Source: Takakia lepidozioides
Taxonomy: Eukaryota; Plantae; Bryophyta
DNA length: 64,000 bases
NCBI GenBank assembly: GCA_030704615.1
Contig: CM060734.1
Span: 19,654,001-19,718,000, forward strand
Direction of reading: 5' to 3'
Below are positions 41,640-64,000 of the stretch, piece by piece. How positions within the stretch are numbered: position 1 is the stretch's first letter; each line of letters begins with the position of its first letter. The position numbers and the translations under genes are program-made. The notes below the pieces were generated by a model, which was not told where the DNA came from, did not search any database, and saw only the letters and a list, made by a program, of their open reading frames with translations.

Positions 41640-44562
41640 TCTATGGAAAGAATACAAGTGGCGAGATCCAAGCACTTTTGGCCTTCTTGGGAACTGGAAT
41701 TATTCCCTTGACTCCGATCCATGCAACTGGATGAGTGTCCAGTGTGGCGTTGGACCTCTGGCTGGTGGCCGTGTGGTCTCTCTCTCTATTGGTGCTAAGA
41801 TGCTGGAAGGGACCATCACACAAGAGCTGAAGGGTCTTCCTTTTCTCAGAGTCTTGGATTTGAGCGATAACTTGCTCACGGGCAATATACCACGCGAATT
41901 GGGAACCTTAAAGCAGCTCAAACTTCTCCATTTGTTTGGTAACCAATTGACTGGGGAAGTCCCCCCTGAGCTTGGTGACTGTGCGAACTTGGAAGATCTG
42001 CAGATAGGGAGAAAGTAACATTCCACGTACATTTGGCAAGCTTCAAAGACTCCTGAATCTCAACGTCCAGGGATGTAGACTCACAGGAGCGATACCAGCT
42101 GAGGTGGCAAATATTTCAGGGTTGACAATGTTGGCGTTGAGTGACAACTTGCTCTCGAAGACCATTCCACCGGGGCTTGGAAATCTCACAGCACTCCAGA
42201 TGGTGAACCTTGGCGGCAATTTGTTGACCGGGGGAATTGCCGACGAGCTGGTGGGGTGGAGCAGCCTTGTTCAGCTTGAGCTCTCCAGTAATCTGCTAAC
42301 AGGGGCAATTCCATCCTGGCTGGGTTCTTTCCACGCTTTGCAGTATCTGCATTTGGGTGGAAATCAATTGACAGGTGGCATACCCAGATCTTTGGCAAAC
42401 TGTTCCTCTCTTCAGTATCTGAACATCTCATCTAATAACTTGACAGGAAATCTTCTGCCGCATTTTGGCAGGCTCATCAACATGCAATCGTACTTGGACT
42501 TATCACATAACCAGCTCTCAGGATGCATACCCCCAGATCTGGGAGGGTTGCGGCTACTGAAGGGGTTGAACCTCTCAGCGAACTCTCTTAGTGGTGATAT
42601 TCCGGGTAGCCTGGGCGAGTGTGCAGGGCTGATAAGCCTAGACCTGTCAGACAATAAATTGACTGGAAGCATTCCAAATTCTTTTGGTTCACTCCTCAGT
42701 CTCAATTTTTCTTTGAACCTCTCACAATTTTCTGGACGGGTTGATACTCAGTAATCTGGGAGGCCTTTGGTTTCTGTCTCAGCTGGACCTCTCTTCCAAT
42801 AATTTGTCCGGGCTATCGCAGGTTTGGGGCTCACAGAGGCGGACATGGAGCCTTGTCCTTTCCAGATACAGACATCTCTGGGGATTCCATACTCTCTTAC
42901 GAATTTAAGCAAGCTTGTGTTCTTGAATGTCTCTGACAACAAGTTGATAGGCACTGTTCCGGACACTGGCATTTTCTACAGCCTTTCTGCAGAATCTCTT
43001 CTGGGAAATCCTGGGCTTTGTGGAGCTACTCTACACAAGGTGTGCCCAGACATTGTCTCTCCAAACCCAATTGCTTCACTTCATGGAGCTTATGGGCATA
43101 AGATCAAGAGACACACTATGTTGTCCTCCATAGCGGTGGTAGCAATTGAGGGCACTGTCCTTCTCTGCCTTGCCTTGTTTCTGTTTCGTTATCTTTGTGT
43201 CCGCGGCACTCTTCCAGGAGATGATGTTATTGAACATTCTGTTCTCTAAGTACTTGAAAGCTCTCAATCTGACAGCAGAGGAGATTCAGAGGGCAACTGC
43301 CAACTTTAGAGATAATAGTGCTAGCATCAGTGGAGGTGGGGGATCAAACAATGTGGATAAGGCCATTCTCCCAGATGGAACAGTCTTTGCAGTAAAACAA
43401 TGGAGTGTTGCAAATTTAAAGAGGAAGGCCAGAGATAACCTGGAGACAGAGCTAATGAATTTGTCGAAAGTACGTCACTGCAACTTGGTGAGAGTCTTGG
43501 GTTTCTACAGGAGTAGAGACACTCTGGGCATGCTTTTGGAGTTCACGCCCAATGGGAGCCTGGACCAGCACTTGCACCCTGGGGGCCACCAGACTTGCCA
43601 GCTTAGGTGAGTTCTTTGCACACTGCCCCTGCTGAAGCTGGTTATTAAAGACCTCCAGAAGTTGGATTCTGATTTGATTCCTGTTTACCACATGTGACAG
43701 TTGTCTTAGAAGTTGCGAACAGTGCGGATGTGGCATTCATTAAAAGGCATCTTCTGGCTGCATGCACTACTAAGGTTCTCTCCATATGGGATTTGAATAT
43801 TTCCTGGCTTAGTATATGCTTTGATAACTCTGTACCATGTGCGTTTGGGTTGCTATTGTGGTCTCCTTTAATACCTCCATTACAGATTGCAATTGAGAGC
43901 TTGGGAGTGCCATACAAAGCCGCTTATATAGTATGCCCTTGGCTGTGTCTAGGTGGGATGATCGATTTCGGATTGCTATGGGAATCTCAGAGGGTCTGGT
44001 TCATCTCCACCACAACTGTGGGAATCCTATGGTGCATGGTGAATTGAAACCAGAAAATATACTTCTGGACTTGGACATGAATGCAAGAATAACCAACTTA
44101 GGGATAGAGCGACTTGTGAATCCAGCATACAAACGTGCAGCTGCAGCTGCAAACTCAGCTGAATACACCCCATCAGGTTAGTTCTAGTGTAATTTGATGC
44201 AAAATACTTTCAGATGCTTTCCTCATGCAGGAGTAGGCCTGAAGTGCTCAATCCCAGACTGATACTGGAAGGGAGCAACTGAGAGCTTGGAAAAAGTACC
44301 CAGCGGGATGCATTGCTGTGTTGACACAAGTTTTTGTTCTGTTATATCAGTCAACTTGGACCATGTGATTTAGAACTAGACATTGTTCATTTCCTTTTTT
44401 GTTAAGTCTGTTTATGTGGAAACGAAGTAACGTGCATTGTGCCACCTTTCCAGGATGTAAGGTGCATCAATCCACATGAATGTCTAACCCAGTAACACAT
44501 ACCTTCCTGCAGAGTATGCCTCCAGCGGAAATTTGTCACTTAAGGGTGATGTGTACAGTTAT
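41640..44562 (+). pseudogene. LRR receptor-like kinase pseudogene (non-RD, FLS2/LRR-XII-like architecture)
   Basis: LRRNT (EIQALLAF...CNW.SVQC), about 15 plant LRRs (LxLSxNxLxGxIP), GNPGLCG, a TM segment, and kinase AVK...HCNLVRVLG...HGELKPENILLD...KGDVYSY. Disabled by frameshifts (about 42015 and 42720), a 68-bp insertion, a stop at 43247-43249 and C-terminal truncation. Confidence 0.9.
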
Positions 44563-47500
44563 GTTCTTAGACTTATCTGCACCTGATGTGGGGCAATGTT
44601 TTAGCTGTGGACACAGATTGTCGTTCAGGATGCAGTCTTCTTCCATCCCCTTCCTGATCACATAGACAGGCTTCGTTCTCTTTTCATAAAGCACCATTTC
44701 ATTTCATTTCTCTTTTCATAGTTATAATTCAATGTGCTTGACCCAGAGACCCAAATCCGGGCCCTCCTTGGTAAGTGGCTTCCCATATTTCTGGGACCTA
44801 AAGGAGGCTAGTGGAAGCTACTGGATGTGGCTGGAACAATTGCTTTAAGCTCCCTCCTTCTGGGGGCGTGTTAGGCTCCATCTATCAGATGGATCACTCA
44901 GGGATTTAGCCACAAATCCCTAGGTTCTTCTATTTGGAAATCTATCTAGTATGCTTGGGGGAAGTTCAGACCCTTCCTCAAAAAGCAAGAGCCATCATCC
45001 TTCCATGAGGTCCAAAGGCAACATCTTTTCCTCAACTCCTCGTCACCCTCCCCTCTGGAGACAAGTCAGGCTAGGAGATGGGCCTCCTGGGAATCTGGTG
45101 GCTTCACTCAGATTTCCCGCATTTGGACAAATACTCCTTAGTCACTTATTGCCGCTCTGGGATCCAAAAAGGCTACATCTGGTATTAACCCCATTCTGCA
45201 AACAATTCCAAACCCGAGAGACATTCTCAGGCTCGGGGGAGGATCTCCCTCTGCACCAATGGGTAGCTACGCCCTCCCTAATCTCTCATATTCTATACAT
45301 CTCGGAGGTAGACTTGCCTTCTGTCACTGGCTACGCTTTTCAAGCTGAATTGTTCTCGGAGTCCCTCTCTCTAGTTTCTTCAAGAACAGTCACCATCCAA
45401 GCTGCGCTAGTCTCTCCAGCACGCATTTGCCACTGGTCCTCTAAATGTAAAGATTTCAACCCCTCCCTCCCTGTAGGAAGCTCTATTGTTCCTTGCCCAT
45501 AAATGTTTCAAAGCAATCCACCTCACGGCGCTCCGCTCCCTCACAGCTATTATCACCAACAAACACCAACTAGAATCCGACTCTTCGAACGCACCATAGG
45601 TCACCCAGGGTACCCCCTGGGTACCCAGGGGTACCATAGACCCCTCTATTTTCTACGGTCACCTGGTGTCCCACAAGACGCCTATCTTTTTATAGGGCCC
45701 ACCCCCAAAAGAGAGCAGTCGCCGCGAGGCGAAGTGGCTCTTAGTTACGCCGGCTCCGGCCGGAGTCTTCTCTCTCTCTCTTGTTCTTTGGCTGCTAAAC
45801 ATGCATGTGTTATTCGCCTGTGTGCATCCAAGGGGAAGGCACGTGTTGCCACCTTAGTCATAGGAAGCATGCAATGGAGGGGCCAGATATGGACTCTCCA
45901 AAGGCGGATTCGCCCTACTCCCTGCTGGCAAGGGAGGAGAGGAGCCATCTGTATCGGGTCCATCACTATGAATTTCGCCAAAGGATACATCCACTATAGC
46001 CAACTCTAATAACCAACTCTATAACTCTCCATTAGTTTGGAATCGAGGCACATTAGTTTTGGATTGAGGAGATCGTAGCTCATGCATGCAGGTTAGATTG
46101 CAGATTGATGGCGCCGAAATTCTATTCAGTTCATTTGTGTACTGTAGATACTATCATATGCCTGAGTAACATGTTGGTGAAGATCACAGGCGGCATGGGA
46201 ATCAATTGGCGTGAAGGCTGGAGGCTAGAGCTCATGAAGCGTCGATTTTGCAAATCAATTTTGTAACTGGTGCAGTATCTTGCTCATGATATGGCTATGG
46301 CAGAAGCAGCCGCTACCATGAACTGTCGCCAAACACCAGAAAGCAGGGAAGATCCTCAACCATCTTGAGACTCATTTTTGTCTCATCAGTTGTTAGGGTT
46401 TGTAGCTTTGGAGGGCAGCTAGGTCATGAGCCCAGCCCCATGAGCCTGGGAGCTGGGCTCACTTTTAGCGCAGTAAGCGTGAGCCTACGCTCACGCTTAG
46501 TAAGCATGAGCCTAGGGTCTAGGGTGTATTGGAAACAACACCTATTCCCGAGGACCTGAGAACGGGGGCCTATTCCCGTTGGAATGGCCAACACTACCTT
46601 CAACTACACAACACAATAAAAGAATCCAAGAGCACTTTTTGGAAACGAACGACAGCACAATCCATGCCTATAGAATATCACGATGTATTACATGAGTTGC
46701 ATAGGACCGGCACATGAGTAGTATTCAAGTCGAGTTCCAGTATCTTGTATTATTGTCCATTGTTATAAATATCATCTTGATTCATCTTTACTCATCATGC
46801 ATTCGGCCATGCCGACCTTGACTTCTTGTCTAGCCTTGTACCTCTAAGTCTGATCTTTTGTTTGTGTTCAGTCATGCCCTCGTCCTTGACAGTTTGGCGA
46901 GACTAAAGTTTGTTCCTTAGTTAGTTAAGATGGAAGACACAGTTGCGGAAATGGTCGCCACCTTGCAGAGCCTCTAGTTCCAGATGCAAGAACTTCATAC
47001 ATCTACTGCCCACCTACAAGCTGATCAGTCTCAAGATCTTGGCAACGCTCTCAACAATCTGCAACAACAAATTTCAGAGTTGAAGGAGTCAAACAATGGA
47101 TCTTCAACCATACGAGTCCCCACTGCAACAGCTCCTACTGCAACGATTCCTCCACATCTTCAAGAAATTACGAGAGAACCAAAGGTCAGCATGCCCGAGA
47201 AATTTGATGGGACGAGATCAAGATTTCGCGATTTTGTTCAACAAATACGATTGTTCCTACGACTACATCCACAACGTTATCCCGATGAAGGTATTCAAGT
47301 GGGATTCGTGGGCACCCTTCTATCAGGCACTGCCCTATCTTGGTTTGCACCACTGTTAGAGAAAAATTCACATTTACTATACAATTTTGAATCATTCATG
47401 TCCGAGTTCACTACAACGTTTGGAAAGAATGATAGTGAAAGAGTTGCAGAGACAAAAATGTGAAATCTACGACAAAGAGCGCGTCCTGCTTCCATTTACG

Positions 47501-49807
47501 CTGCTGAATTCCGACAATTTGCGTGCAACCTCGACTAGAATGATAAGAGCATCATTAGTCAGTTTCGATGTGGGCTAAAAGATGATGTAAAAGATTTGTT
47601 GCTGACAATGTCAAATGTGAGTACACTGAGTGAATTCATCACCCAAGTCATTGCATGCGTTAATCGTTTGTTCGAAAGACGTCAAGAAAAACGATCTGGA
47701 TGGTCGACGATACACCATGCCGCTGCTACTACGGCACCAAACACAACGATCCATCAGACATCCGGTAGCGATCCTATGCAGATTGATGTTGTCCGATTCA
47801 AGCCATTGACACAACAAGAAAAACAACGACGACGCTCAAATAGTTTATGTCTCTATTGCGGAGAAGAAGATCACATAGCATTAAACTGCCCCAACAAGAG
47901 AAGAATCAAAGCTCGAGGCGCAACTCCAGTGTTCGATACGAGGAGGTCGGAAAACGAAGATGTTCAGTCACAATAGGGAATGCGGTTGGACACCACCAAT
48001 TCTTCACATAAAAAAAAATCTCTTTCTACCTCCAGACCCTGTATCTTGTTTCACAGTTCCAGTAAAGATCATGATGCAAAATTGAGATATCTCCGCAAAA
48101 GCACTTTTAGACTCGGGCGCTCCAGCGTGTTTTATTGACAAAGTCTTTGCGAAGCAACACAATTTAACGCTCGTAAGAAGGAAATTCCCGGCCCATGTTG
48201 AAGTCATCGATGGACGACCGTTAGCATCAGGAAACATTGACCATGAAACTCGACCCCTTGAAGTAAAACTTAAAAATCAAGCATCACAGATTGTTTTCAA
48301 CGTCATCCAATCTCCAACGAATCATGTGATCATTGGACTTCCCTGGTTTATAATTCATAATTCTGACATCGACTGGCGATCGCGAAAAATTTCGGCAAGA
48401 CAAAAATGCAAAAGTACCAAAGGTATTCAACCCCTATTTCTTGGAGTTTGAGCCTTCATGAGAGCTACAAAGAAAGACGCGACATTTGCGCTTTATGTGA
48501 CTTCAATCAAGACCACAACAGACCAAGGTACTTCGACATTACCCACTCAATATCAAGATTTCAAGGATGTATTCGAGAAGAAAAATGCAGACATGTTGCC
48601 AGAACATCGACCCTATGATTGTGCAATTGAGTTGCAAGAAGGAACCCAACCACCATTCAGCCCAATCTACAATTTATCTGAGACGGAGTTGGCTGCTTTA
48701 CGCGGATATTTTGATGAAAATTTGTCGAAGAATTTCATTCAACATTTGAAATCACCCGCGGGAGCACCTATTTTATTTGTGAAAAAGAAATACGGATCGT
48801 TACGCATGTGTGTGAACTATCGTAAGCTCAACAAAATCACTATAAAAAATCGTTACCCACTACCGCTGATTTTCGGACTCCTCGAACAACTTGGACGAGC
48901 AAATGTTTTCACAAATATCGACTTGAGATGAGCTTACAACCTTGTACGAATAAAATAAAGAGATGAATAGAAGACTATTTTTCGCACAAGGTACGGACAT
49001 TTCGAATATAGTGTTATGTTTTTCGGTCTTACAAATGCTCCAGTAATTTTCCAACACATGATGAATGACATCTTTCGAAAAAATTTAGATGACTTTGTAG
49101 TCATCTATTTGGACGACATTTTCACATAATGAAGAAGAACATGGTCGCCATGTACCCCTTGTCCTTGATAAATTGATGGAAAGATGACTATATGTCAAGT
49201 TGAAAAAATATATTTTCCACCAATCTGAAGTCGAATTTTTGGGCTACATTATTTCCGACAAATGAGTCTTTATGGATCAGAATAAAATACAAACCATCAT
49301 TGAGTGGATTAAACCAACTTCGGTTCGAGTTGTACAATATTTTCTAGGGTTTGCAAATTTCTATAGGATCTTCATCAAGGACTACTTCAAAATTGTTGCA
49401 CCATTGACACGACTCACAGGGAAAGACAAGTTTATATGGGACGAGAAGGCTGACCAAGCATTTGAAAGACTAAAATAGGCATTTACAACGGCCTCAATTC
49501 TGGTACATGCAGACCCATCCAAACCATTCTTCTTAGAAGCAGATGCATCGGACTTTGCACATGATGCTGTGCTATCTCAATACGGTACGGATGGCCGACT
49601 TCACCCTGTTGGTTTTCGCTCTCGGAAATTTTCTGCTACAGAAATCAATTATGAAATCCATGACAAAGAACTTTTAGCGATTATCGATGTCTTTGAGGAG
49701 TGGTGTCATCTATTAGAAGGGGCTAAACATCAGATTACTGTCTACACCGTCAGATGTTCTTTTTCGACGATCGTATCTTGCGCCGAAAGAATGGGAGACA
49801 GCTTTCG

Positions 49808-50831
49808 CACTACAGGAAAATGGGAGGGTTTTCGACGCCGCGGCGTCGTAAAACAACATTTTTCGGGCAGGGGGGAAGAACCAAATTTGCGACGCCCGGG
49901 CGTCGCCAAAAAAACGCCGCAAATTTACGACCAATGAGGGTCACAAAAAGGTGAAACCGTGATTTGCGACGCCGACGCGATTTGTGACGCCCGGGCGGAA
50001 ACCAAAAAAAAAAAAAAAAAAAAAAAAAAACTACTATGCAATGTAGATTTAGCATCCTCCGGGGGTCACAAAGTGCGACGCCCGGACGTCGCAATTTAAA
50101 GGGGTACATTTGAATTTAAGCGGGAAAATTTGAATTTCAAAAACTTGTTGACCATTGACTCCGGTTCTGTCTAATGGCGATACGTTCATTGTTCTACATA
50201 TATCATGCAATGCATACTTAAACCCAAGACCTCCACATTATAAAATTTCTAAGACACTACAGACTAACCAACACACCTACCCTACATCTATGTATCACAA
50301 AAGCAATCTATATATATATATATATATATGAAGATTTTCTTCAAGTTCCTTCTAAGGGGGTCATTCTTGTGACGTCGGGGAGTTGCAACCTTCACAGCCT
50401 TAGTGCCCAGCCCCAGCCCCAGCCCAGCCCCAGTGTCATCGCCGTTGTTGCATCCCCCTACCGCCAGGCGCCCCAAGTGACGCCCTTGTAATGAAATAGA
50501 GAGCCGCAAAGCCAAAAAAAAAAAAACAAACAAACAAACTCCCACTGTGGTGATGCTGTGTTGCGACGCCCTGGCATCGCAAAGGCGCTGGGCGCCCTCA
50601 GTGACGCTTTAGCGGCGTCGCAACGTCTAAAATAAAAATAAATAAATAAAACTTCGCAAGAAAAAAAATCCGTCGCAGCGAGGGTCTCTTTCCCTCTTCA
50701 TGCCACCTTGCGACGGCTGGGCGTCGTAATGGTGTCGCAGCGGGGCGGCGTCACAAAAAAGCACCGCGGGCTCGGCGCGCGGGGCGTGGGGGTGCGGCTG
50801 GCGTCGCAAACCTCCCCCATTTGCTGTAGTG
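49808..50831. mobile_element. Non-autonomous CACTA element inserted in chromovirus pol
   Basis: Left end CACTACAGGAAAATGGGAGGGTTTTCGACGCC. Reverse complement of the right end is CACTACAGCAAATGGGGGAGGTTTGCGACGCC. Many subterminal GCGACGCC/GGCGTCGC repeats. The expected 3-bp TSD is not preserved (TCG vs CAA). Confidence 0.88.
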
Positions 50832-52639
50832 CAACCAATAGAAATTCATCATCTTGAAACCAGCAAATCTCAAATTGAATATATTATCCATGTCCACCTA
50901 TGATGATGCAGAGATCATAAAGGAGATTCAGGAAGTACTGAAGAGCGACCAATTTGCTAAAATACTATGAAGTCAATTGAATCAACCTCAAGACCACCCA
51001 AATGTTACAAACGATTTCGAATTCAAAGATGGTTTACTTTACTTCAAGGGACTTCTCTATGTACCTTTAGGACCCATACGATTTTGAATTCTTCAAACAT
51101 GTCATGATCTTCCGGCTACAGGACATTTTGGCTTCAACAAAACAATGGAATTGATATCCAGGGACTATTGGTGGTCGCAGATGTAGAAACTCGTGAAATT
51201 TTTTATAAAATCTTACGACACGTGTGCTAGAGCGAAGGGACCACGACATCGACCTTACGGCCTTCTTCAACTATTATCCATTCCCAAGGGTCCATGGTCG
51301 TCCGTGTCTATGGACTTTATTACGGACCTTCCAATTTCCAAAACCACTGATTCAATCCTTGTTATTATGGATCGTTTTACGAAGATGACACATTTCATTC
51401 GATGTAATAAGACGGTTACAGACGAGGAAACTGCAAGACTCTTCCTCAATAATATCTACCGCATTCATGGACTCCCGCGAAGGACATCGTATCTGATCGA
51501 GGACCACAGTTCATATCAAATTTCTGGAGGGGATTATTTCACATATTGGATACTAAGATCAACCTCTCTACAGCTAATCATCCACAGACTGATGGTTAAA
51601 CCGAACGCGTAAACCAGATTTTGAAGCAGTATCTTCGTTGTACGATAAATTGTCACCAAGATAATTGGACGGACCTTCTGTCATTAACTGACTTTGCCTA
51701 CAACAACACTATACATTCTTCGACCAAGCAAACTCCATTTTTCTCCAGTTATGGTCATCATCCTCGAGCAAACCCTTTCCATATGAAGGTTGTTGGAAAC
51801 CTTGCTACTCATCTTGCTACAATTCACAATGAGTTTACATTCCACCTCGCAGAAGCTCAAAAACAATACAAGGAGTATGCAGATCAACATTGACAACTCC
51901 AACCCCAGTTCAAGGTCGGCGATCGTGTATGACTTCTTCAACATGAAATACAAACCTCGCGACCATCAAGGAAGTTGGATTATCAACGCCTGGGACCATT
52001 TAAAATTATTCGTCAAATAAATCCGGTCAGTTTTCTGCTTGAACTCCCACGAAGTATGTGCATCCACCCAGTCTTCCATGTCTCATTATTAGAGTTGTAT
52101 CATCGCTCAAGTATCCCCGGGCGCGTTTCTGTACCACCTCCACCGATTGAAATCAATCAGGAAATCGAGTATGAAATCGACGAAGTCCTAAACTCTCGCA
52201 TCAAGTATAAACGTCTTGAGTATTTCGTACATTAGAAAGGCTATGACATTAGCGAACGAACGTGGGAACCGTCATCCGACCTCGCCAATGTATCTGACGA
52301 AGTCCAAGAGTTTCATCTACGATATCCAGCTAAGCCTCGAGTCACATGTCAATAAAACGTCACACCGATGACGTCAGCCACTTCAAGGTGAAGATTTCAC
52401 ACTCGGTGCACCTGATACACGCTAAGCAGGGAGGAACATCATACATCAGTATATATAGCTACACTTCCAGCACTCTTGCATCTTGTATTGGCAACATGAA
52501 GTCACAGGAAACGGATACATTAGAGTTGTCGCTTATCCAACTACCAAACCAACCGTTCCGACTCTCACAACCTTCAACATCACACCGACGTCCTCCAGAC
52601 GATGGGCCACCAAGGCGACGCGTACTTCCTCGTCTGGAC

Positions 52640-53380
52640 CATTGGTGGCCGGATATAGCACTCTACCCCGGTTAGTGAGTCGGTTACCACCCCGGTTAGT
52701 AGGTATACATAACCGCATATAGGGTATTTTTGCAAAATAGAGTAAATAGATAACCGACGGTTGGGAGGTGAGTATGTATATATATATGTACCATATATTA
52801 AGGTTAGCACTACACTGTATACCCGGATTAGTAAGGTGTTTTGACCCCCTAGAGCGGTTACAATTATGTATAAGACACGTTCATACTCACAACGCAGTTG
52901 CATTTCTAGCGATGTCTCTCCATTGAAGACATTCAATGAATCATGACATTGATGATATGGGGAGACCAGTTGTGCTGATAGCAAGAATGATTCAGAGTTC
53001 CAAGCTCCTGGCCACTGAGGTGGTGACAGAGGGTTTCCTTATGACATAGCTCATGGCCAAGTTGCTGCACCCTGGAGCCCCTAGGGATGTCAGGTGTGAA
53101 TTGATTATTTTTAAAGAAAATCATTGAGAAATACAAGTTCTCATTCAATATATTATATGTAACCGCCAATTGTATATATATATCCGCCAATTGTAGGACA
53201 CCTCTAACCGTCCTATTCATAATCGTCTAAATTTGAAGAATTTTCTAGAATAGATAACCGGTGGATATACTAACTTAAAAAAATTATCCTTATACATAAC
53301 CATGGAGTGTGTCCATCCCAAAATAATTGAAGTAACCTTAACCGGCGGATATATAAAATTCTTATAACCGGCCAACACTG
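52640..53380. mobile_element. Non-autonomous hAT element inserted in the chromovirus 3' UTR
   Basis: 8-bp TSD GTCTGGAC at 52632-52639 and 53381-53388. Imperfect TIR CATTGGTGGCCGGATATA vs CAGTGTTGGCCGGTTATA. Subterminal ATAACCG repeats. Confidence 0.88.
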
Positions 53381-53701
53381 GTCTGGACCCCGTACGACGG
53401 CAAGTGGAGTCTACTCGAAGTCTGATAATCCTGTTGGAGGTTGAGGCTTCGAACCTAAAGGGCAACGGAATCACGTTTGAAGGCAGCTTCGAAGATCAGA
53501 ATGCTCAAATCACTGCGTGGTCCCGAGTTCAAGGTGTTGGACACTATCGATGGTTGCAGGGACCTATAAATCATTTGAGTCAAGAACGAAGATCCGAATA
53601 CTTGGCAAGTACCATTCGCCGAATTTTGGATTTTCTCCAACTCTAAGCAAATCCAAGATTTTACCGTTCCTCGAGGAACTCGGCGCTAAAGGAAGGGGTG
53701 A

Positions 53702-54347
53702 TGTCACGGACATAGCCTAGAAGAATTCACCAAGAGTAATTATCAGAAGTTACCAAGTTATCAAAAGTTACCGTGATTTATCATGATTTATCATGATTTA
53801 TCATGATTTACCATAAATTACCATGAGTTATCAAATTACCATAAATAACTACCAAATTACTAAGAGTAACTCAGGAAACTGCTCAGGAAGCTTCCTGGTG
53901 GAGGAAGTTTCGCAAGAGACTTCCCTTGGTCAAGGAAGCTTCTCAGGAGACTTTTCTTGGCAGGGGAAGTTTCTCAAGAGACTTCCCTTGGCTGGGGAAG
54001 CTTCTTATGAAACTTCCTAATAGCCAGTATATATAGAAGGCGAGACTGGACATTATTTAGTCTTGCCAACACAAGTTCCAGCTATTCTTGTTTCCAGTCC
54101 CAGTACTTCAGTCCAGCTTTGAGTACTCTAGTCCAGTTTCCAGTATCTGGTACTCCAGTCCAGTTTCCAGCATTCCAGTATTCAAGTCGAATTCCAGTAT
54201 CTTGTACTCTTGTCCATTGTTATAAAGATCATCTTAATTATTCTTTACCCATCATGCATTCGGCCACGCCGACCTTGCTTCTTTTCTAGCCTTGTACCTC
54301 TAAGTCTGATCTCTTGTTTGTGTTCAGTCATGCCCTCATCCTTGACA
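53702..54347 (+). repeat. 3' LTR of the chromovirus (646 bp)
   Basis: TGTCACGGA...TCCTTGACA, preceded by a PPT. Internal tandem repeats: ATCATGATTT x3 and ~39-bp GGAAG(C/T)TTC units. Confidence 0.9.
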
Positions 54348-54572
54348 ATGGGCAAAGCAGCTGCAAATCAGCCCACTGCCGAGGGAGGATCACCCATAAT
54401 CTTTCTCCAGGAACATAAAGACCAATTCAAAAAGCCAGAGTCAATGAGACCAACCCAGGGACAATGGATGATCAACTCCAACTCAGCCCACGCCATACAC
54501 TCACCTCAGCAGGGGGGGAGATGAATGACCCAATGATTCTGGAAGCCAGAAACTCGGTCAGGCCTCAAGGGT

Positions 54573-55415
54573 TTGTACAAAGCAAACTTAAACCATCGGA
54601 ATCATCCCCCTTTGGCAACTGCAATAGAGTTCTTAAACCCCATGTGGTCCAAGGGGAGTTTGGCCAAATTTGTGGTCTCGGGCATTGCAAGCAACCCGGT
54701 GTTGGCAAGAATATGTCTGGGCCTACATTCATTTCCAAAGCTGACCCTGGACAGTTGCTCACAATTAGACACTGATAATCCCCCAAAAGCTTCATGTGTC
54801 ACTCCAATGGTCTTCAGGAAAGGGAACCCTCCCTTCTTTCTCATTACCTCTGGGAATGCGGAGTGTTTGGAGTCTCTGTGGATTACGAATGACGACATCA
54901 AACACTTCATGCAGGTCTGCCTACCAAAGAGCAATCTAGATCTCATCATCAAAAAGAAAATCTATGATTTTTTTGCGGATCATCTTAAGCACTACTATCT
55001 TTCCAGTCTGACTAATATCTCATGGGGAGCATACAAAGAGGATCATCCTGGGCTCACCTCAAAACCCTCCATGCAAGTATTAGCTCTCATGGAGGAAGCC
55101 AAGGTCTACAACACACCTGCACCGAAAGATGCCTTTTGGGTCAACAAATCCATAATGTCGAGAGTTTGGGGCCGGGGTGCACTACCAACAAGAACAACAA
55201 ATTCACTCAAGAATGCATTCTTGATTCTATATGCAAGGCTGGAAAATGACTTGGCTCAAGAGGAGTACCAACAGGAGCTACAAAGGACCAGGGACTTCAT
55301 CAAAAGAGACAAAGGACACAAATCCCTAGCTCAAGCATCATCATCCTCCAGCCCCTCCATAAAAGTGGTTCCTTCCCTGCCCGGCACAATTTCTGCCAAT
55401 GCCAGGTCAGCCTCG
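54573..55415 (+). CDS. Uncharacterised ORF (probably TE-derived), truncated by the inversion breakpoint
   Basis: 297-codon open frame with protein-like composition. Its last 17 codons are antisense retrotransposon protease, so the native ORF is interrupted at about 55416. No family recognised. Confidence 0.4.
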
Positions 55416-58254
55416 AGCCTTGCCCAGCATAAGTGGCTGAGCTCCCGAGTCAAGCAGTACTCGTAGTAGCTGAAACCTCCTGCCCGCCGGCCCACTCAAA
55501 CAGAAAACACCATCCTGGTTGTCCAACAAAACAACTCCAGGTGTCACCATGGCGCGCTCAATGGCTGGCCTAGCTGGCAGTTACAGCTTGCCATGGCGCA
55601 GCCGTGGCAGTCTTGACCCTCAAATCCGAGGATCCTGCCACCACTGCACCTTCTACTAACTTTGAAGAAGATGAAGTGACATCCCCACTCTCACAGAGTG
55701 TTGCTGCTAGTCTGAACACTGCAGCTGGTCTTACCCCCGGCGTCGCAATCATGGTTGCCGAGAACAGTAGGGCCTGACACACAGAGGTAGTCGCCCCCAA
55801 CAGCACACTTGCTGCACTAGCCTTGGCAGCAGGTGTCGGCGCTGCACGTGTAGCTCTCCCCCATGGCACAATAATCTCCGCCTCGGTATCCGTGGGGCGA
55901 GAACTAGGTGCCATGGATGGCGTCAACATTGTCTCCGCCAATGTGAATGATTGAGGCAGCCTGGCTTGACGGCTTGCCTCCCCACACTGTGGATCTAACT
56001 CCACCTCTGCGCCTCGTGGCTCATGAACTCGTGCTGCTCCTCGAGTCACGGCTGCAGCAGAATCCACCTGTATAAGTGGCCACTCAAGTGTTGCCCCGCA
56101 CATAAATCCCATGTCTCTCATGCCTACCATGTCTCCTCCATCAGGATGACGCTGTTGAGGAGGAACAGGGGATGGACCCTCACGTCTTGGAGCTGGTACC
56201 ACATGAGTTGTGGCCATGGCAGCAAGCCTCTGCTCTAGCTGTTGAAGCCAGTTGGCCATGTTTTGGTCAATGCCCTGACCTCCACGACCTTGGCCATGTT
56301 GTGCTTGGCCTCGTCCTGCACCTCGTGCCTGACCACCTCGTGCTATTTGAGGTGCTCCACCTCGCCCCCGGCCACCATTGTTCCCTTGGAACTGGCCTCG
56401 CCGCAACTCAGGGTGCAAGTCATAACACTGGGCCTCTCTATGCCCATACTTGCCACAATGCCCACACTGCAACTGTGTAGGTTGTGCTTGTGCCAATCCT
56501 TTGCCGCTCTCTGGGCAATCCTTCTTGACATGGGGTCCTCCACATGTCCAACACACCACCCCTAGTTTTTGTTGGCCTGCAAAAGAAGCTACTGGCCTCT
56601 GCATCTGAGGCCCCCTGTAAGCTCCATGGAATTTGGGTTGGGCAACCTTGCCCCTCTGACCACGCTGCGGTACAATGTGCTGCGTTTGTTGGTTGGCAAA
56701 CACACCTCGTGGCATGTCTTTGCCAAACCCAATGGTTATTATACGCTCCTCCACCATGTTGAGCTCAATCCGCTCAGCCAGCAGAAACACATCTGCTAAG
56801 GTGGGTTGGGCCGCTTGTAACAGGGTTGCATCCCGCACCCTTCTCCTGAGCTCCTAGTCCAAAATTCCATACCAGAATTGGATTGCCTGAGCTTCAGTGA
56901 CCCCTTGGGTTACACTTATCAAGCACTTCATACGAGAGTAGGCCTCTCGCAAGCTCTCACTGGACTTGCGTTGGAAGTCTTGCAAACTTCGCAACTTCTC
57001 TGTCCGTACGACTTGGTAGTTCCTCCGCAACGCTTGGAAGAACTCCACCACCGGGTTGAATCTAGGCACATGTGTTGTAGTCGTGGCAGGAGGAATGGTA
57101 GCACCTTTAGAACTGAAGTACCGGCACTACTTGTTCCACTACTAGTGCTGGCAGTGGGAGATATTGGTGCTGATGCAGCTACTAGTCGTGTCGTGCCTCG
57201 AGTAATGGAGACGTAGTCAGGTGACCAATACATCCTCCACTCCTCAATCTCTGCTTCATGTCCTCGCCTGAACTCGTGGTAATCGTCCATAGGCGGGCCT
57301 TCCAAATGCTGGAACAGTCCCTTCCACGCCATGAATGGGGTGAACAGCTGTGGATTGCACATCTGCTGCAAATCACACCAGCTGTCGAACTCCTGGATAA
57401 AGTCATCCAGCTCGATTGTGCCCACAGCTCCTGAGTACCTACGAGGCCCCTTGGTAGCTCCATACATCTCCTCCATGTCGTCCCACAACAATGGCGAAGG
57501 AAACTGCACACCGGTTGATGAAGCCTCTGAGTCTGTATCAGACTCTGCACTGGTTGAGGGTGGAGGTGAAGGTGGTCTGAACCGAACACCTCATCTTGTG
57601 AACCCACTCTCACTGAAACTGCCTGTAGCTGTACTCCCCTCAAAACCCTTGGGTAACTCCGTGATGACACTCACAACCCGCACCTCCCCCACGTAACACT
57701 ATAAGGCTCTAGTACTAATTCTAATAGTGACACGGGTGGGTACCTGTTGCGGTTTAAGGGTCATATCCTAAGGGCACCTGCACCTGCATCCACTGCAAGA
57801 ACTCCTATGGTTGGCTGGTCATCAACCCAGCCTCACCATAGAAGAAACACTGGTGGTCTTGCTGGTCATCACTCTAGCCTCACCACCGACAGCATACTCT
57901 AGGATTGACCGGTGATCAAATCCGGCCTAATCCCTATGAAAGCAAGCGCCCACACAAAACCAACATGGCGCACAGTCAAGCATGCAGGTGTGGAGGGGAT
58001 CCAAACACAAAGAACCAAAACATCAACACCCCCACACCAAAATCCCTCCGCAGTGCTGCTCCTGCAGAATACCCCAGCCCAAAACCCGGACTGACTCTTG
58101 CCTCCACCTATTGAAAGGTTTTGGCCTACTGAGAGGATGGAAAGCTATGGGAAGGAGAGACTAAAGCAATTCCTAACCCCAGCATGCCCTCAACCCGACA
58201 CATAGGTGTGGTGGAAGGGTGTTTTTTAGTCTCACAATTGTGAGCATGGTCACT
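55416..58254 (-). mobile_element. Inverted 5' half of a Ty3/gypsy element: putative LTR/leader, gag and protease N-terminus
   Basis: Minus strand: candidate LTR start TGTCGGG at 58200 and PBS-like TAGTACTAGAGCC (cf. Met-i TGGTATCAGAGC) at 57717-57705. Gag fragments 57509-55570 carry Zn knuckles CWTCGGPHVKKDC and CGHCGKYGHREAQC. The frame then reads ...RVLLDSGAQPLMLGKA (aspartic protease catalytic motif) and ends at 55416. Confidence 0.85.
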
Positions 58255-61200
58255 TTCTGTGGATGTGAAAAGCATGACACGCCATGAGCTGTTCATTAGA
58301 CTGCAGCCGGATCATCCTACAGATGGCTCAGTTACCATTGTGATGGACGCAGTTTCATGTGATGTGTTGGTTGGTGGGGCAGTATTATATCCCATGGGCT
58401 TCACCCTGGATTTTTGGGAGGAGTCGGCCTCGTATAGGCCTGGATGGCAATCAGGAGATGGTCGTCGTGTGCAACTCCCTGTGACATTCATTGGGGGTGT
58501 TGCAGCTGCCCAGCGGGGTAAGATACCGACACTAGCAGCCTTCACAGGTGTAGTGAGTTGGCCTGGAGAGTTGCTAGAAGGCAATGCTCATGCAGAGGAT
58601 GTGCCACCTCCAGCAGAGCAAGATGATATGCATTGTACGGCGGAGTTGCCTACCATGGTTGCTCACAGTCCATTGTGGGGCACGAGCAAAGATTTGCAGT
58701 AGACTGCTGATAGACGGGTGCAACAAGCTTGGGTAGAGGCATTTGTACCGTCACGAGAGGAGGACAGTGCAGTGATTGCACCAGAACCACCTCAGTTGTC
58801 GCCATTGGATACCACACCTATTGTGTGGCAGTGCCTGGATGAAGGCATATGCCTTCTGGACTTGTTTGGCGGGATCAGCACTGGATTGGCTGCAGTGCTG
58901 CAGGCAGGTGTACGAGTTCAACGTTACCTGTATGTGGGGAGGGATGAGACTGCACGACGCGTCTCACTGCGCCATGTTGCTCAGTTGGTGCAGCAGTACC
59001 CTGATTTGTTGCCAGTGTCTGCAGTTCGTGGATACCAGCAAGCCTTGCTAGCAGAGATCTCTTTGCTGGGGGCGCAGGATTTGGAGCGGGTTGGCCTTAT
59101 TCACTTGGTAGTGGCAGGTTGGCCTTGCCAAGGGCATTCATCAGCCGGGCATGGCAATGGGTTACAAGACTCGAGGTCACGCCTGTTTTGGGAGATGTTG
59201 AGGGTCCTGCGCTATTACAGCTTCAGCAAACAGACTCTCCGGCATATATCTTGGAGAATGTGCCATTGATGGGTAATTCTCGAGCCACGGTGATGGCCAG
59301 TGTGCATCAAGTCCGGTCTTGGCTTGGATCGGTAGTGTTGCTGGATGTAGCTGCAGTGGGGTCACGGGCTCATCGCCCACGACTATGGTGGACCAACTTG
59401 ATGCCACCCGCATTGCTCAAGCAGGCTTTTGATGGGGTGCAGCGCCCAGCGCACCTGATAGTTGATAGCATTCTGGACACAGGGAGGCAGTCTCAGCGTG
59501 TGAGACACGATGACCGGTCACCTTTGGCAGTGATCAACAGGATAGGTCAACCACGAGCAGCACTACCTACACTCCTCAGCTTTCCTGGATCTCATGCTTT
59601 CAGGGATAGTGGACCTGGCCTCCTGTGGGATGCTAAGTTGCAGCAGTTAGTGGAGCCCAATGCTGACGAGCGCGAGCAGGCAATGGGTTTTACCACTGGT
59701 ACCACGGCGGTGCCATCTCTTTCTGAGGCATCACGTCGTCAGGTGTTGGGGCAAGCAATGGATCTCAATTCCTTGACCTGGATTATCAGCTTGGCTATGG
59801 CTGAGCAGCGCAGAGTACGAAGTACATTTCCCTTGATGGTCTCACTGCCTACCCAAACGGTACAGGCAGCGAGTGGGGGCAAACAGGTGAGGACCACGAG
59901 GTGCATGCCACATCCATGGCACATGTGGGAGGTGCTCGAGGTTCAGAGGGAGTTGGCAGCCAAGGCGGCGGTGATGGATGAGGTTGGGGATTTTTCTCGG
60001 GTTGAGGAGGTCCTCAAGGATGAGATGATGGGGCAGGATGAGGCATTGTCACTAGCAGAGCAGGTAGTGGTCACTGCTCAAGAGGTTGCAGCATAGCAAC
60101 CACGGGACGCGTCTTCTACTTCTAAGCATGCTGGACTCAAGGTTGCAGTCACGGAGGACAACTGGGAGCCTGATGTTGGACCCATAGTCACCGGAGGAGA
60201 GAGACGACGTATACGACGGTTCTTGAGGGCTTACAAGAACTGCTTTGCCTTCAGTTTAAAGGACTTAGGAGCACTGAAGGGTCAAGAGATTTGCATTGAA
60301 TTAGCCACTGACATGCCAATCTTTCGGAGACCCTATAGATACAGTGACATGGAGAGGTCCTTGATTCAGATGAGGACTCATGACCTCTGGGAGGCTGGTT
60401 TGATGGAGCTATCTAGTGGAGAGTATGCTTCAGCCACAGTGATGCCAACCAAGAAGGATGTTTATGGCATGGACGGAAAGACGTATGTGCGGTGATTACC
60501 GGCCTGTAAATCGTCAGACCAAGTCCGATAGGTATGTCATGTCAACATCAAAGGAGATCTTTGATGCCACTGGGCATGCCAAGGTCCTTAGCACTTTGGA
60601 TTTACGATCCGGATATCACCAGTTGCCGATCAAGGAGGCGGATAAGCAGAAGACGGCATTATGGGGGATCAATGTGCACGGGAAGGATTGCCTATACCAG
60701 TGGCGGTTATTACCATTTTTTTAAGAACGCTCCTGCAAAGTTTCAGAGAGTCATGGACAAGATTCTAGCAGGGGTGGAGTTTGCTCGGTGCTACATAGAT
60801 AACATCATCATCTTTAGTGCTACGGTGGAGGAGCATGAGAGACACCTTCAGGTGGTATTTGAGCGCTTGAGGGCGCACGGATTGAAGTTACATCCGGGGA
60901 AGTGCAAGTTTTTCCACAACCAAATTGAGTATCTGGGTCACATGATATATCCTGGAGGATTGGGGGTACAGCAGACTAAGGTAGAGGCCATTGCACAAAT
61001 TCCACGCCCCACGGATGTGAGCCAAGTTTGAGCTTTCATGGGGTTGACAAACTATTATAGACGGTTTGTCAAGGGATTTAGTGCCATTGCAAAGGCTCTA
61101 ACCAAGCTGACCAAGGTGGACCAGGAGTAGCAATGGGAAGATGAGCAAGAACGAGCTTTTCAAGAGCTCAAGGCAAGGCTGACCTCGGCGCCCATCTTGA

Positions 61201-61700
61201 GATGACCTATCAGGGGGCGTCATTTTCAGCTGCATACAGATTGGAGCATGCTGGGGCTTGGAGCGGTGCCCACACAGGTGGATGATGAGGGAAGAGAGTT
61301 CGTAGTGGCTTATGCTAGCCGCTCGAACAACGCTGTTGAGGCTAAGTATAGCTCATATGAGGGAGAGTGCTTAGCTGTAATGTGGGTCGTGGCACACTTC
61401 AGGTGCTATCTATATGGCAATCTCTTCACCCTTGTCACAGATCACCAGCCACTCAAGTGATTGATGGAGTCAGACAAGCTTACAAGAAAGCTTGCATGGT
61501 GGGCACTCATACTCCAGGAATATGACTTTCAGGTGGTACATCGACCCGGTCTAGTCAATCGGGATACGGATGGGTTGAGTTGCAATCCATGCACGAGCCA
61601 TCAGGATGACACTGGAGCTCGGTGGCATGGTGAGACGGGCAAGATGGTGCCCGGATGGCATACATCTTCATTTCTGTGTATCTTGGCAACGGAAGTCTAG
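58255..61700 (+). mobile_element. 3' part of the same Ty3/gypsy pol: protease C-half, C5 DNA methyltransferase, RT, RNase H (decayed)
   Basis: CDVLVGGAVLYPMGFTLDF (protease C-terminal motif), then the DNMT domain. RT: RRMCGDYRPVN, LDLRSGYHQ, KNAPAKFQRVMD, CYIDNIIIF. RNase H: LHTDWS, YSSYEGECLAV, LVTDHQPLK. Truncated before integrase by the MULE insertion. Confidence 0.93.
58844..59790 (+). pseudogene. Retrotransposon-encoded C5-cytosine DNA methyltransferase domain (DNMT3-like motifs)
   Basis: Motif I LDLFGGI (58856-58876), IV GWPCQG (59117-59134), VI YILENV (59245-59262), VIII AHRPRLWWTN (59368-59397), IX EREQAMGF, X RRQVLGQAMDL, in canonical order. One 1-nt frameshift at about 59215. Confidence 0.92.
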
Positions 61701-62099
61701 GTTGGACCTACAACAGGGCAGCGTAGCTACGGCGTGAGCTCAGCCCCGTGAGCCTGGGAGCTGAGCTCACGTTGTAGCTGCAAAGCGTGAGCGGCACAAA
61801 TCTGCTGGAAGAAGGTCCTATAGGCGAGATTGCAAGAGAATTTTACCGTGGACAAAACAAAGGGGGCCACCATGCACCATGTCTGCAATGCCTGCACAAA
61901 AAGAGGAATATGAAAATATGGCAGAATTGAGCTCAGAATGATTGACACACTTTTTCAATTCACAGATAGACGCTTACAATGAATGGCATGTGCATTTGCC
62001 CTGGTTCCGTGAACGAAATGTATGTGTTTGTCCTAAATGCAAAGTCTTCACACGGTAACCTGGAAACCAGCGTGGGAAGCGGGCATGGCTCGTATGTGT

Positions 62100-64000
62100 T
62101 CAAAGAGAATTTGGCGGAGCCCTACGTGAGGTGTCCCGCTGCAGAAGGGTGATGACTTCTCCGTAGCCTAGTGTGGCTTGGTGAATGAATTGGTCTCTCT
62201 TACCGTCGCAACACATAATTACAAGGTATATGTAATATTGATGCTTGCAGGGGACCCACTTCCCTCTCATGCCGAGAGCGCCCTCACGCATCGTTACAAA
62301 ATCCGGACAAGTGCAAGTAGGGAAATTCCCCACGGTAACCTGATATTCTTTGCCATGAAGAACTGAGCCAATAGACAGCACTGTGTAAATCCGTCCATAC
62401 CCCGGGGCAGGGACTTCGGTGATACGAGCCACCCGAGCCTGCAAAATTCTAGCCGATTCCATCTTGCATTCGTGATCTGCACCCGAAGCGACACGGCGCA
62501 CTGTTTTTCCATCTCTTTTTGTTGGGTGGGAGTCGGCACCGGGTGGAGGCATTGCCGGAGCATGTGGCACATCTGTGCCGACAGTGCACAAGGGCACCAC
62601 CCGGGACCGTGCAAGACAAAACCCTCCCTCCTCCAGCATGCTTATCTCGGTTGTTGACAGCGACGTCCCAAGTTTCACAGGCCAAATTGCGGGGGGGGGG
62701 GGTTTCATTATCACCGAAGGACGAACTGTTCCCTTGACGCATCGTGCCATATCGTCTGGGCAGAACCAGAACTTGTGGTCCTTTGACTCCCCACTATGAT
62801 AAGGTCGGAACAACCCTGTGAATGTTGGAGCTGGAGTCCCCCTGGAGCCTTTGCATATTTTTGATTTGCATTTCTTGAAAGAGGGGGTCCGAATTGCCAT
62901 GCAAGCAACTCTAGATCCTGGTGGGGTGCGTTCTATATGCCACTCACTATCAATGCAATCAGATTCCTGCACCATGGCCACCACCTCCTCCAATGGGATT
63001 CCTGCTGCTGTGCTTGCATGTTCTGCACCTGCTCCACTGGAGGAGGACCCACCTGGGAAGGGGGGCACACGACTTAGTCTGCACTGGAGACACCTTTGGC
63101 ACAGAGAAATTGACCCTGTCTGGGCGATGGGAATCTCCATCTGACCCTGGAAGAGTGTTCAATTTCCTTTTGCATGATCCAAATCTTTCCTCGCCTTCCA
63201 AATGAGGGAGCCTGGATTGCAAAGGGGAGCCTTCAGTGCACCTGTTCAGAGCTCTGGCCATCTTCGATGGGTCTCTACTCGCAGCCCTTAGCATCAACAA
63301 AGTCGTACCGGGGCCCTTGCCTCCACCCCGATCCCATCAGAAAATACCTGTTTGTTGTGTAAGTGCCCGCACCATGTCATCAGCAGTGGCCAATACAAGT
63401 CACGACCTGCTTGGTAGATTGCTGCATCCAGGCGTTGTGAACAGTCTCCGCCAAATTACAGGATGGCATGTCGGCCAAGTCCTCCAAGGACATGTCCTGT
63501 AGGAGGCATTGCATGGAAATGTGAGGACGAAAGAAATGGAAGAGGTTCTGCAAGCGACAATCCAAAACCCCAAATGAACAGGCACGATGCAATTTTGTTT
63601 TTTTGGGATTGAAGAGGCTTACCGTCGTCATGAAAGCTCCCCACTGTTGTACCTGAAGTGCCAGAAACCAACCAGTCCTCCAACTCCTTCAGTGGATACC
63701 AGTAGCAGCACCAGAGGAGAACCACCAAGCCCGGATTGCCTGGTAAGTGCTCTGAGCTTCTCCCATTAAGGTGGCATTTTTGTACTTGAGACAGAGCCTT
63801 CTGTGCTCCAACTGAAGGTCAGGGCGAATGCAGCGCTTTGTATGACGTGCCAGAGATTGACTCCAATGGAAGAGGCATGTGCGCTCCCTATTTCCATTGG
63901 GACCTTAGGATCCCCCGAACCAAACACGCGCCGCACTGCATTGAAATTTGCCTGTGCACTATCAGCAAATGAAGCCCGCAAAATTTGTGTCTGTATTCCA
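62100..64000 (-). mobile_element. Mutator-like (MULE) DDE transposase with C-terminal SWIM zinc finger, frameshifted, continues past window end
   Basis: Minus-strand fragments ADSAQANFNAVRRVFG (second catalytic D region), RTCLFHW (CxxH) and CNLAETVHNAW (catalytic E). ORF 62100-63140 has the SWIM motif YQVTVGNFPTCTCPDF...PCKHQYY. Confidence 0.85.

Follow-up and report, generated by a model that had tools for sequence, protein, structure and literature searches.

We analyzed a 64-kb stretch of DNA (the window) that contains, toward its right end, a retrotransposon whose coding regions lie on both strands. On the minus strand, two ORFs (56928-57590 and 55570-56853) encode gag, and the second of these contains two CCHC zinc knuckles, CWTCGGPHVKKDC and CGHCGKYGHREAQC. 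Pfam gag models applied to the gag of the element gave no match reaching an E value of 0.01. An aspartic protease motif, LLDSGAQ, is also present. On the plus strand, Pfam detected DNA_methylase (PF00145; 58703-59269; E value of 4.5e-8), RVT_1 (60443-61031; E value of 9.6e-18), and RT_RNaseH (PF17917; 61206-61460; E value of 1.2e-25). The motifs FGG, PCQ, and ENV, which we take to be the named cytosine methyltransferase motifs, are visible in the plus-strand DNMT region. We used the minus-strand gag ORF (55573-56853) in a protein search, which returned 15 homologues of 749 to 2135 amino acids (aa), 14 from Marchantia polymorpha or Sphagnum fallax and one from a metagenome. In 12 of the 15, PF00145 lies in the same protein as gag. 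The Marchantia proteins, for example, Mp_4g09160 (now referred to as P0002; 1278 aa), display the collinear order gag-protease-DNMT, and the closest solved structures to P0002 are DNMT3A/3B (E value of 1.7e-8). The gag-PR-DNMT homologues, the Pfam domains, and this structural match identify the element as a gypsy-type retrotransposon with a DNMT3-like domain, in the order gag-PR-DNMT-RT-RH. As in Ty3/gypsy elements, it combines a gag carrying CCHC knuckles with an aspartic protease, an RT, and a gypsy-type RNase H; as in DNMT-carrying retrotransposons, a C5 methyltransferase domain lies inside the polyprotein.

The copy in the window carries several frameshifts and stops. Neither a direct nor an inverted second copy of 57480-58200 was found in the window, and the LTR is therefore putative. 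The sequence TGTCGGG, proposed as the LTR start in a preliminary description of this DNA, occurs on the minus strand at 58194-58200. According to read depth, repeated sequence gives way to unique sequence near 58177-58207, which fits a TGTCGGG start at 58200. No 3' repeat was detected in the window, and tblastn found no integrase of the DNMT family downstream of RNase H within the window. Since the Sphagnum relative BDL97_09G086500 (P0013) carries rve (integrase), the family has an integrase, which the copy studied here, within the window, lacks. Similarity to other family copies seems to end near 61665 (with a contig loose end at 61638), a position that may be a fifth breakpoint or a nested insertion; with the integrase and the 3' repeat missing from the window, further breakpoints or a nested insertion beyond 61665 are possible. 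The high abundance of the family is apparent from the summed depth of the element bins, which is approximately 10^5, or 10^3 to 10^4 times the flank, a value that is not a copy number. A nearby ORF (62103-63158) has only two homologues, both without names.

The orientation of the two halves was established by tblastn with P0002. Residues 1 to 94 matched 57476-57195, residues 132 to 590 matched 57069-55576, and residues 595 to 648 matched 55580-55419, all on the minus strand, while residues 682 to 1267 matched 58274-60021 on the plus strand. The N-terminal half of the protease (N-half) ends in ...RVLLDSGAQPLMLGKA (...LMLGKA), with its last codon at 55416-55418 (minus strand). The C-terminal half (C-half) lies inside a plus-strand ORF that begins at 58244, and its homology is detectable from 58274. 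The inverted block (block X; 55416-58249, minus strand, 2.83 kb), the right end of which is uncertain between 58249 and 58255, thus comprises the protease N-half (55416-55580), gag (55576-57476), the 5' noncoding region or putative LTR (57477-58200), and, from 58201, 49 to 54 nucleotides (nt) of unique flank (f). Block D (58250-61665, plus strand) begins with the protease C-half, which starts at 58250-58256, and continues with the DNMT3-like domain (58703-60096; a stop at 58700 and a frameshift at ~59215), the RT (60097-61031), and RNase H (61206 to ~61660). This layout agrees with the preliminary description, which had gag and the protease N-half on the minus strand stopping at 55416 and the protease C-half, followed by DNMT, RT, and RNase H, on the plus strand; we place the beginning of the latter at approximately 58250-58256. 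The same description tied gag and DNMT to one element and named as one objection a derivation of the gag and pol halves from different families. Both halves have their best match in the same Marchantia gag-PR-DNMT proteins, which assigns them to one family and upholds the link.

We compared positions 53400-62400 with Logan contigs derived from four runs of one sample. The junction at 55415/55416 was bridged by contigs in all four runs; these contigs had depths of 23 to 62 and covered 35 to 103 nt of the element. Among the matches listed, the right junction was bridged in one of the four runs (X3), by an exact 126-nt contig (58177-58302; depth of 73). The flank at 54604-55205 has single-copy depth, about 80 to 110 in X1. 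The junction contig in X1 had a depth of 62, compared to 70 to 72 for the flank contigs, and the junction contigs in X3 had depths of 50.5 and 73, compared to ~50. Contigs of other copies of the family aligned from 55421 and then continued into sequence absent from the window. The single-copy depth of the junction contigs, together with the other copies running past the breakpoint, indicates that the inverted layout truly exists in the reads and is confined to this locus. We rejected it as the native arrangement of the family because the Marchantia proteins are collinear and other copies here read through the breakpoint. A misassembly at 55416 and 58254, the other objection raised beforehand, is likewise countered by read-derived contigs crossing both junctions at single-copy depth.

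Undoing a simple reciprocal inversion would bring the two protease ends together again. Re-inverting the block, which had been said to restore the order LTR-gag-PR-DNMT-RT-RH, does not restore the protease, as residues 649 to 681 of P0002 have no counterpart at the joint. Part of this stretch was found elsewhere. By tblastn, residues 654 to 673 of P0002 matched 42824-42883 on the plus strand with 70% identity (LGLTEADMEPCPFQIQTSLG), ~12.5 kb upstream of the inverted block. The complete fragment (shard m; 42812-42883, plus strand) spans 72 nt, or 24 protease codons, AIAGLGLTEADMEPCPFQIQTSLG, and was recovered by tblastn with 6 of 6 homologues. The pattern EPCPFQIQT occurs once in the 64-kb window and gave 0 matches in 100 shuffles. 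An exact 26-mer of shard m had 0 matches in the metagenome contigs. Besides the three pieces, tblastn at E values up to 10 detected no further fragments of the DNMT family in the 64-kb window. The single NHEJ-type inversion proposed earlier is thus not borne out: the two protease breakpoints lie 72 bp apart in the intact gene, and the piece between them has been relocated.

Shard m lies in a leucine-rich repeat (LRR) receptor-like kinase (RLK) gene, in which the LRRs run from ~41668 and a transmembrane stretch and a Pkinase domain are located downstream. Because the search for LRR-RLK orthologues was swamped by repeat-rich LRR proteins, four plant RLKs from the resulting list were used for tblastn. 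The 5' part of the gene (block A; 41668-42811, plus strand) ends in ...LDLSSNNLSG, with the Gly codon at 42810-42812; the G at 42812 can be assigned to block A or to shard m. The remaining LRR-RLK sequence (IPYSLTNLSKLVFLNVSDNKLIG..., the transmembrane segment, and the kinase to ~44181) forms the beginning of block B (42884-55415, plus strand, 12.5 kb). Block B also contains a gypsy element (gag at ~46978; polyprotein end at ~52235; DUF4939/Ty3_capsid), repeats, and a unique 309-codon ORF (54537-55466) that is severed at 55415. No Pfam family was detected in this ORF, and a search of 1.84 billion representatives gave only two weak matches (E values of 2.3e-06 and 7.1e-04), to proteins of 4988 and 2986 aa. 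Shard m is flanked by ...QLDLSSNNLSG and IPYSLTNLSKLVFLNVSDNKLIG... and therefore sits between two consecutive leucine-rich repeats. Between the Gly codon (...LSG) and the Ile codon (IP...) there are 71 nt, where the repeat consensus has one codon; consequently, the receptor kinase is thrown out of frame at this point. Two further frame breaks, near 42010 and 42722, may be real or may be assembly indels. The shard junctions at 42812 and 42883 are taken from the assembly only, whereas the junctions backed by reads are 55415/6 and 58254/5.

We then asked how the three protease pieces fit together. With tblastn, the three-piece tiling was obtained with 6 of the 6 homologues tested: the pieces correspond to residues 455 to 499, 500 to 531, and 532 onward in Sphagnum P0013 and to residues 595 to 648, 654 to 673, and 682 onward in Marchantia P0002. 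Fourteen homologues were scanned for the anchor motif, and the protease regions of nine were aligned; in this alignment, the N-half ends in LMLGKA and the shard begins exactly in the next column. For residue spacing, we used a degenerate-motif search of metagenome contigs, which yielded 40 loci with 68 to 86% nt identity. The LMLGK anchor was present in 30 of these 40 relatives, and the distance from LMLGK to EPCPFQIQ was 13 residues in 30 of 30. In the window, one residue from the N-half and 12 from the shard add up to the same 13. The nucleotides fit as well: past 55421, other copies read ...GCT GCT ATC GCA GGT TTG GGG (minus strand). The first of these GCT codons is the last codon of the N-half, and GCT ATC GCA GGT TTG GGG opens the shard, a fit that was judged by eye, and not computed, over the first 30 nt of the shard.

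At the other end of the shard, the distance from TSLG to M-T-x was 8 residues in 35 of the 40 metagenome loci and 7 residues in 3 (the remaining 2 had no anchor). The corresponding distance in the window is 6, 7, or 8 residues for a C-half start at 58256 (SVDVKS), 58253 (LSVDVKS), or 58250 (SLSVDVKS), respectively, and reading continues in frame from the shard only if the C-half starts at 58250 or 58253. Together, spacing and frame place this junction at 58249-58255, probably 2 to 5 nt to the left of its earlier position; for the C-half, a start at 58250-58253 is more likely than the ~58256 given before. The joint between shard and C-half fits to within 0 to 2 codons, the closest relatives, at 68 to 86% nt identity, being too distant for base resolution. 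Used as a ruler, the protease coding sequence proves that the three pieces were once one protease.

Two further features had been put forward for the inversion. One was a 2-bp AG microhomology, and the AG at 55416-17 is in fact the reverse complement of 58253-54. The other was that re-inversion would let the flanking ORF continue stop-free; the reverse complement from 58254 downward indeed gives SDHAHNCETKKHPSTTPM... with no stop, but with the junction at 58249 a stop follows after 5 codons. By chance, a run of 18 codons would be free of stops in about 4 of 10 cases [(61/64)^18]. Both features depend on a junction position that is probably 2 to 5 bp off and therefore lend weak support.

The relocated shard changes the topology of the locus: within 42812-58255 there are four novel adjacencies, not two. 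Of the ancestral adjacencies, A-B (the receptor-kinase gene) and X-m and m-D (the protease) are secure. For the fourth, B-X, parsimony suggests that 55415 was beside the 49- to 54-nt flank f. In the tblastn searches of the window, blocks m, B, and X each occurred a single time, and nothing longer than a few nucleotides had been duplicated or lost. The joints are blunt or ambiguous by 1 to 2 nt, with at most a few nucleotides unaccounted for at each. In a simple two-break inversion, the protease codons would be at the joint; here, 24 of them are absent from it and present at 42812-42883. The locus instead shows the features of a multi-break rearrangement, namely, at least three clustered breakpoints and fragments that were kept in changed order and orientation with no copy gain. 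A breadth-first search showed that converting A,B,X,m,D into A,m,B,-X,D requires a minimum of three inversions. As we read its output, the minimal path found passes through the A|B and B|X breakpoints more than once.

According to our model, the ancestral order was A-B-f-LTR-gag-PR-DNMT... The DNMT3-carrying gypsy-type copy and its upstream neighborhood would have been broken at four points within ~15.5 kb. The 2.83-kb block containing the flank, the putative LTR, gag, and the protease N-half would have been flipped and re-ligated at its original site, and the 72 bp of protease sequence that two of the breaks had released would have been rejoined 12.5 kb upstream, in the LRR receptor-kinase gene. 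Repair would have occurred by non-homologous end joining, as suggested by joints that are blunt or have 1- to 2-nt microhomology and have lost few nucleotides, and all four junctions would have formed together. We consider one four-break event rejoined by end joining to be the probable origin of the locus, because it explains the order directly, whereas serial inversions need exact re-use of breakpoints. The simultaneity of the four junctions, which we infer, is beyond proof from one genome. On balance, although by a narrower judgment, we regard the locus as a copy-neutral "micro-chromothripsis" fixed in a wild land plant, in which a 72-bp shard was cut and not copied, four breaks fell within 15.5 kb, three fragments were kept, and the protease and a receptor-kinase exon were both disabled at one stroke. 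As a consequence of the rearrangement, the copy of the element is dead.

A single replicative event could also have produced the same four junctions in one step. In this scenario, template switching at a collapsed fork (MMBIR/FoSTeS type) would have copied A, the 72-bp piece, B, X reversed, and D. The small microhomology at the joints is compatible with such copying, and according to the available text of PMC9903802, rearrangement junctions commonly contain short templated insertions ("genomic shards"). However, template switching usually leaves a copy-number change, and each segment here occurs in a single copy, no gain or loss exceeding a few nucleotides. Moreover, templated shards usually leave the donor intact in the same text (PMC9903802), while the donor here lacks the piece. 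We therefore consider template switching a rather unlikely origin. A series of events, either an inversion of X and then a separate excision and re-insertion of the 72 bp or three inversions, is less credible still. Inversions are common, and three are formally enough; yet they would have to re-use breakpoints exactly, at two of the four sites in the minimal path, and the alternative would need a 72-bp fragment to be excised exactly at an existing junction. No temporal separation is visible in the sequence.

Two readings that dispense with a common origin of the junctions appear very improbable. Capture of retroelement cDNA at breaks is a known phenomenon, and with a family as abundant as this one (depth sums of 10^3 to 10^4 times the flank, again not a copy number), a simple inversion with a 72-bp deletion could have coincided with the capture of unrelated protease filler DNA or cDNA in a receptor-kinase break. 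The captured piece, however, starts at the very codon position where the N-half stops and ends within 0 to 2 codons of the C-half, which we estimate at roughly one in a million for a random fragment of a several-kb element; we regard this coincidence as the least plausible of the explanations. An assembly artefact is scarcely more plausible. It would draw on the shard junctions, known from the assembly alone, and on the origin of the bridging runs, which come from one sample that is possibly the assembly's own source. Against it, contigs at single-copy depth bridge 55416 in 4 of 4 runs and, among the matches listed, 58254 in one run, and we know of no assembler error that would transfer precisely the 72 bp lacking at the joint to a gene at a distance of 12.5 kb.

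Two other candidates were rejected outright. Two independent truncated copies lying head to head are incompatible with pieces that tile one protease. Autointegration of cDNA, with an LTR end attacking its own protease, does not account for the 49 to 54 nt of single-copy sequence between the LTR end and the C-half; furthermore, what adjoins the N-half is unique DNA and not the end of an LTR.

The four-break rearrangement that we favor implies that an apparent simple inversion in a repeat can be one visible part of a multi-break event that also struck a gene lying 12.5 kb from it. Base-level resolution is rarely achieved for natural, fixed, and conservative shattering at so small a scale; here, the protease coding sequence served as a built-in ruler. 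The absence of the shard from its donor site is relevant to the question of whether such pieces originate by copying or by breakage. With this locus, a further high-copy gypsy family that carries DNMT3 is recorded, in a plant of bryophyte grade; the available text of PMC5890265 and bioRxiv 10.64898/2026.05.21.726589 describes DNMT3-carrying gypsy elements only for algae.

The element is best compared to KnitGypsy-Dnmt3 of Klebsormidium nitens, a gypsy-type element whose pol polyprotein contains a Dnmt3-related cytosine methyltransferase, as described in the available text of de Mendoza et al. 2018 (PMC5890265). The two are alike in having a Dnmt3-type methyltransferase in a gypsy-type pol, a likeness drawn from their descriptions. 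They differ in that the host here, to judge from its best hits (Marchantia and Sphagnum proteins), is a bryophyte-grade land plant and the order is gag-PR-DNMT-RT-RH. For charophyte relatives, a DIRS-like repeat structure was reported (PMC5890265, Fig. 4 legend), and Marchantia is mentioned 0 times in that paper (PMC5890265). Marchantia P0002 and Sphagnum P0013 belong to the same family as the element, with gag 31 to 43% identical (BLASTP). When P0002 was compared to the window by tblastn, the protease N-half was 63% identical and the C-half/DNMT stretch was 56 to 60% identical. These proteins are collinear, whereas the copy in the window is in three relocated pieces with frameshifts and stops.

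The rearrangement itself is a neatly resolved example of an already known class of events. Chromothripsis-like and other multi-break rearrangements have plant examples. With a simple reciprocal two-break inversion, the locus shares block X, inverted in place between 55416 and ~58250; it differs in that the protease ends do not abut and 72 bp have been relocated. With chromothripsis-like rearrangements and "genomic shards," as presented in the available text of PMC9903802, it shares clustered breakpoints, a new order and orientation, a fragment of <1 kb at a junction, and little or no homology. In contrast to these, the event described here is very small (four breaks in 15.5 kb), copy-neutral, and apparently fixed in a normal genome. 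Finally, the "genomic shards" of cancer are, in the same text, templated copies whose donor remains intact (PMC9903802), while the shard in the receptor-kinase gene was removed from its donor site.

In the rearranged DNMT3-carrying gypsy element, likeness to other copies of the family seems to stop directly after the RNase H region, near 61665. The next feature is a hairpin-like 70-nt repeat at 61720-61792, which is 83% like the sequence at 46412-46484. Downstream of this repeat, a high-depth ORF occupies positions 62103-63158 on the minus strand. Its product contains a CxC...CxH motif, which we take to be SWIM-like. A Pfam search with this ORF returned no family, and only two homologues, both unnamed, were found among proteins of 193 to 616 aa.

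To the left of the inverted block that carries the gag half of the element (55416 to about 58249), the unique region is flanked by two copies of a 172-nt repeat (46720-46891 and 54177-54347). These copies are 92% identical, and the one at 54177-54347 shows high depth. A tandem repeat with a period of 31 nt is also present at 53892-54015; it was detected as three 62-nt copies, overlapping one another, with 74 to 81% identity to the reference copy. A second gypsy-type element, which is not related to the DNMT3-carrying family, lies on the plus strand at 46978-52235. Its gag matched DUF4939 and Ty3_capsid in Pfam. By sequence, a stretch at about 52100-52235 in this element is a candidate chromodomain-like region.

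Reading frames are interrupted both within the rearranged element and in the LRR receptor-kinase gene that harbors the 72-nt protease shard (42812-42883). The DNMT frameshift maps to 59214-59215, where contigs of other copies have one extra T, and represents either a lesion private to the window copy or an assembly indel. Upstream of the shard, the receptor-kinase gene has two more frame breaks, at 42005-42020 and 42715-42725; one of them, in the part encoding ...LNLSHN..., resembles the loss of 2 nt from a CT run. Either the receptor-kinase gene had perhaps become a pseudogene already, or small indel errors are present in the assembly.

As judged from the element at 55416-61665 and the read contigs, the DNMT3-carrying gypsy family is very abundant in the genome. 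A single public read run (X1) yielded 9642 contigs at least 99% alike and 15697 at 95 to 99%. The collinear relatives from Marchantia and Sphagnum, among the 15 homologues of the gag ORF (P0001-P0015), are annotated solely as hypothetical proteins. In the published accounts consulted, DNMT3-carrying gypsy elements are described from algae only (PMC5890265; bioRxiv 10.64898/2026.05.21.726589).
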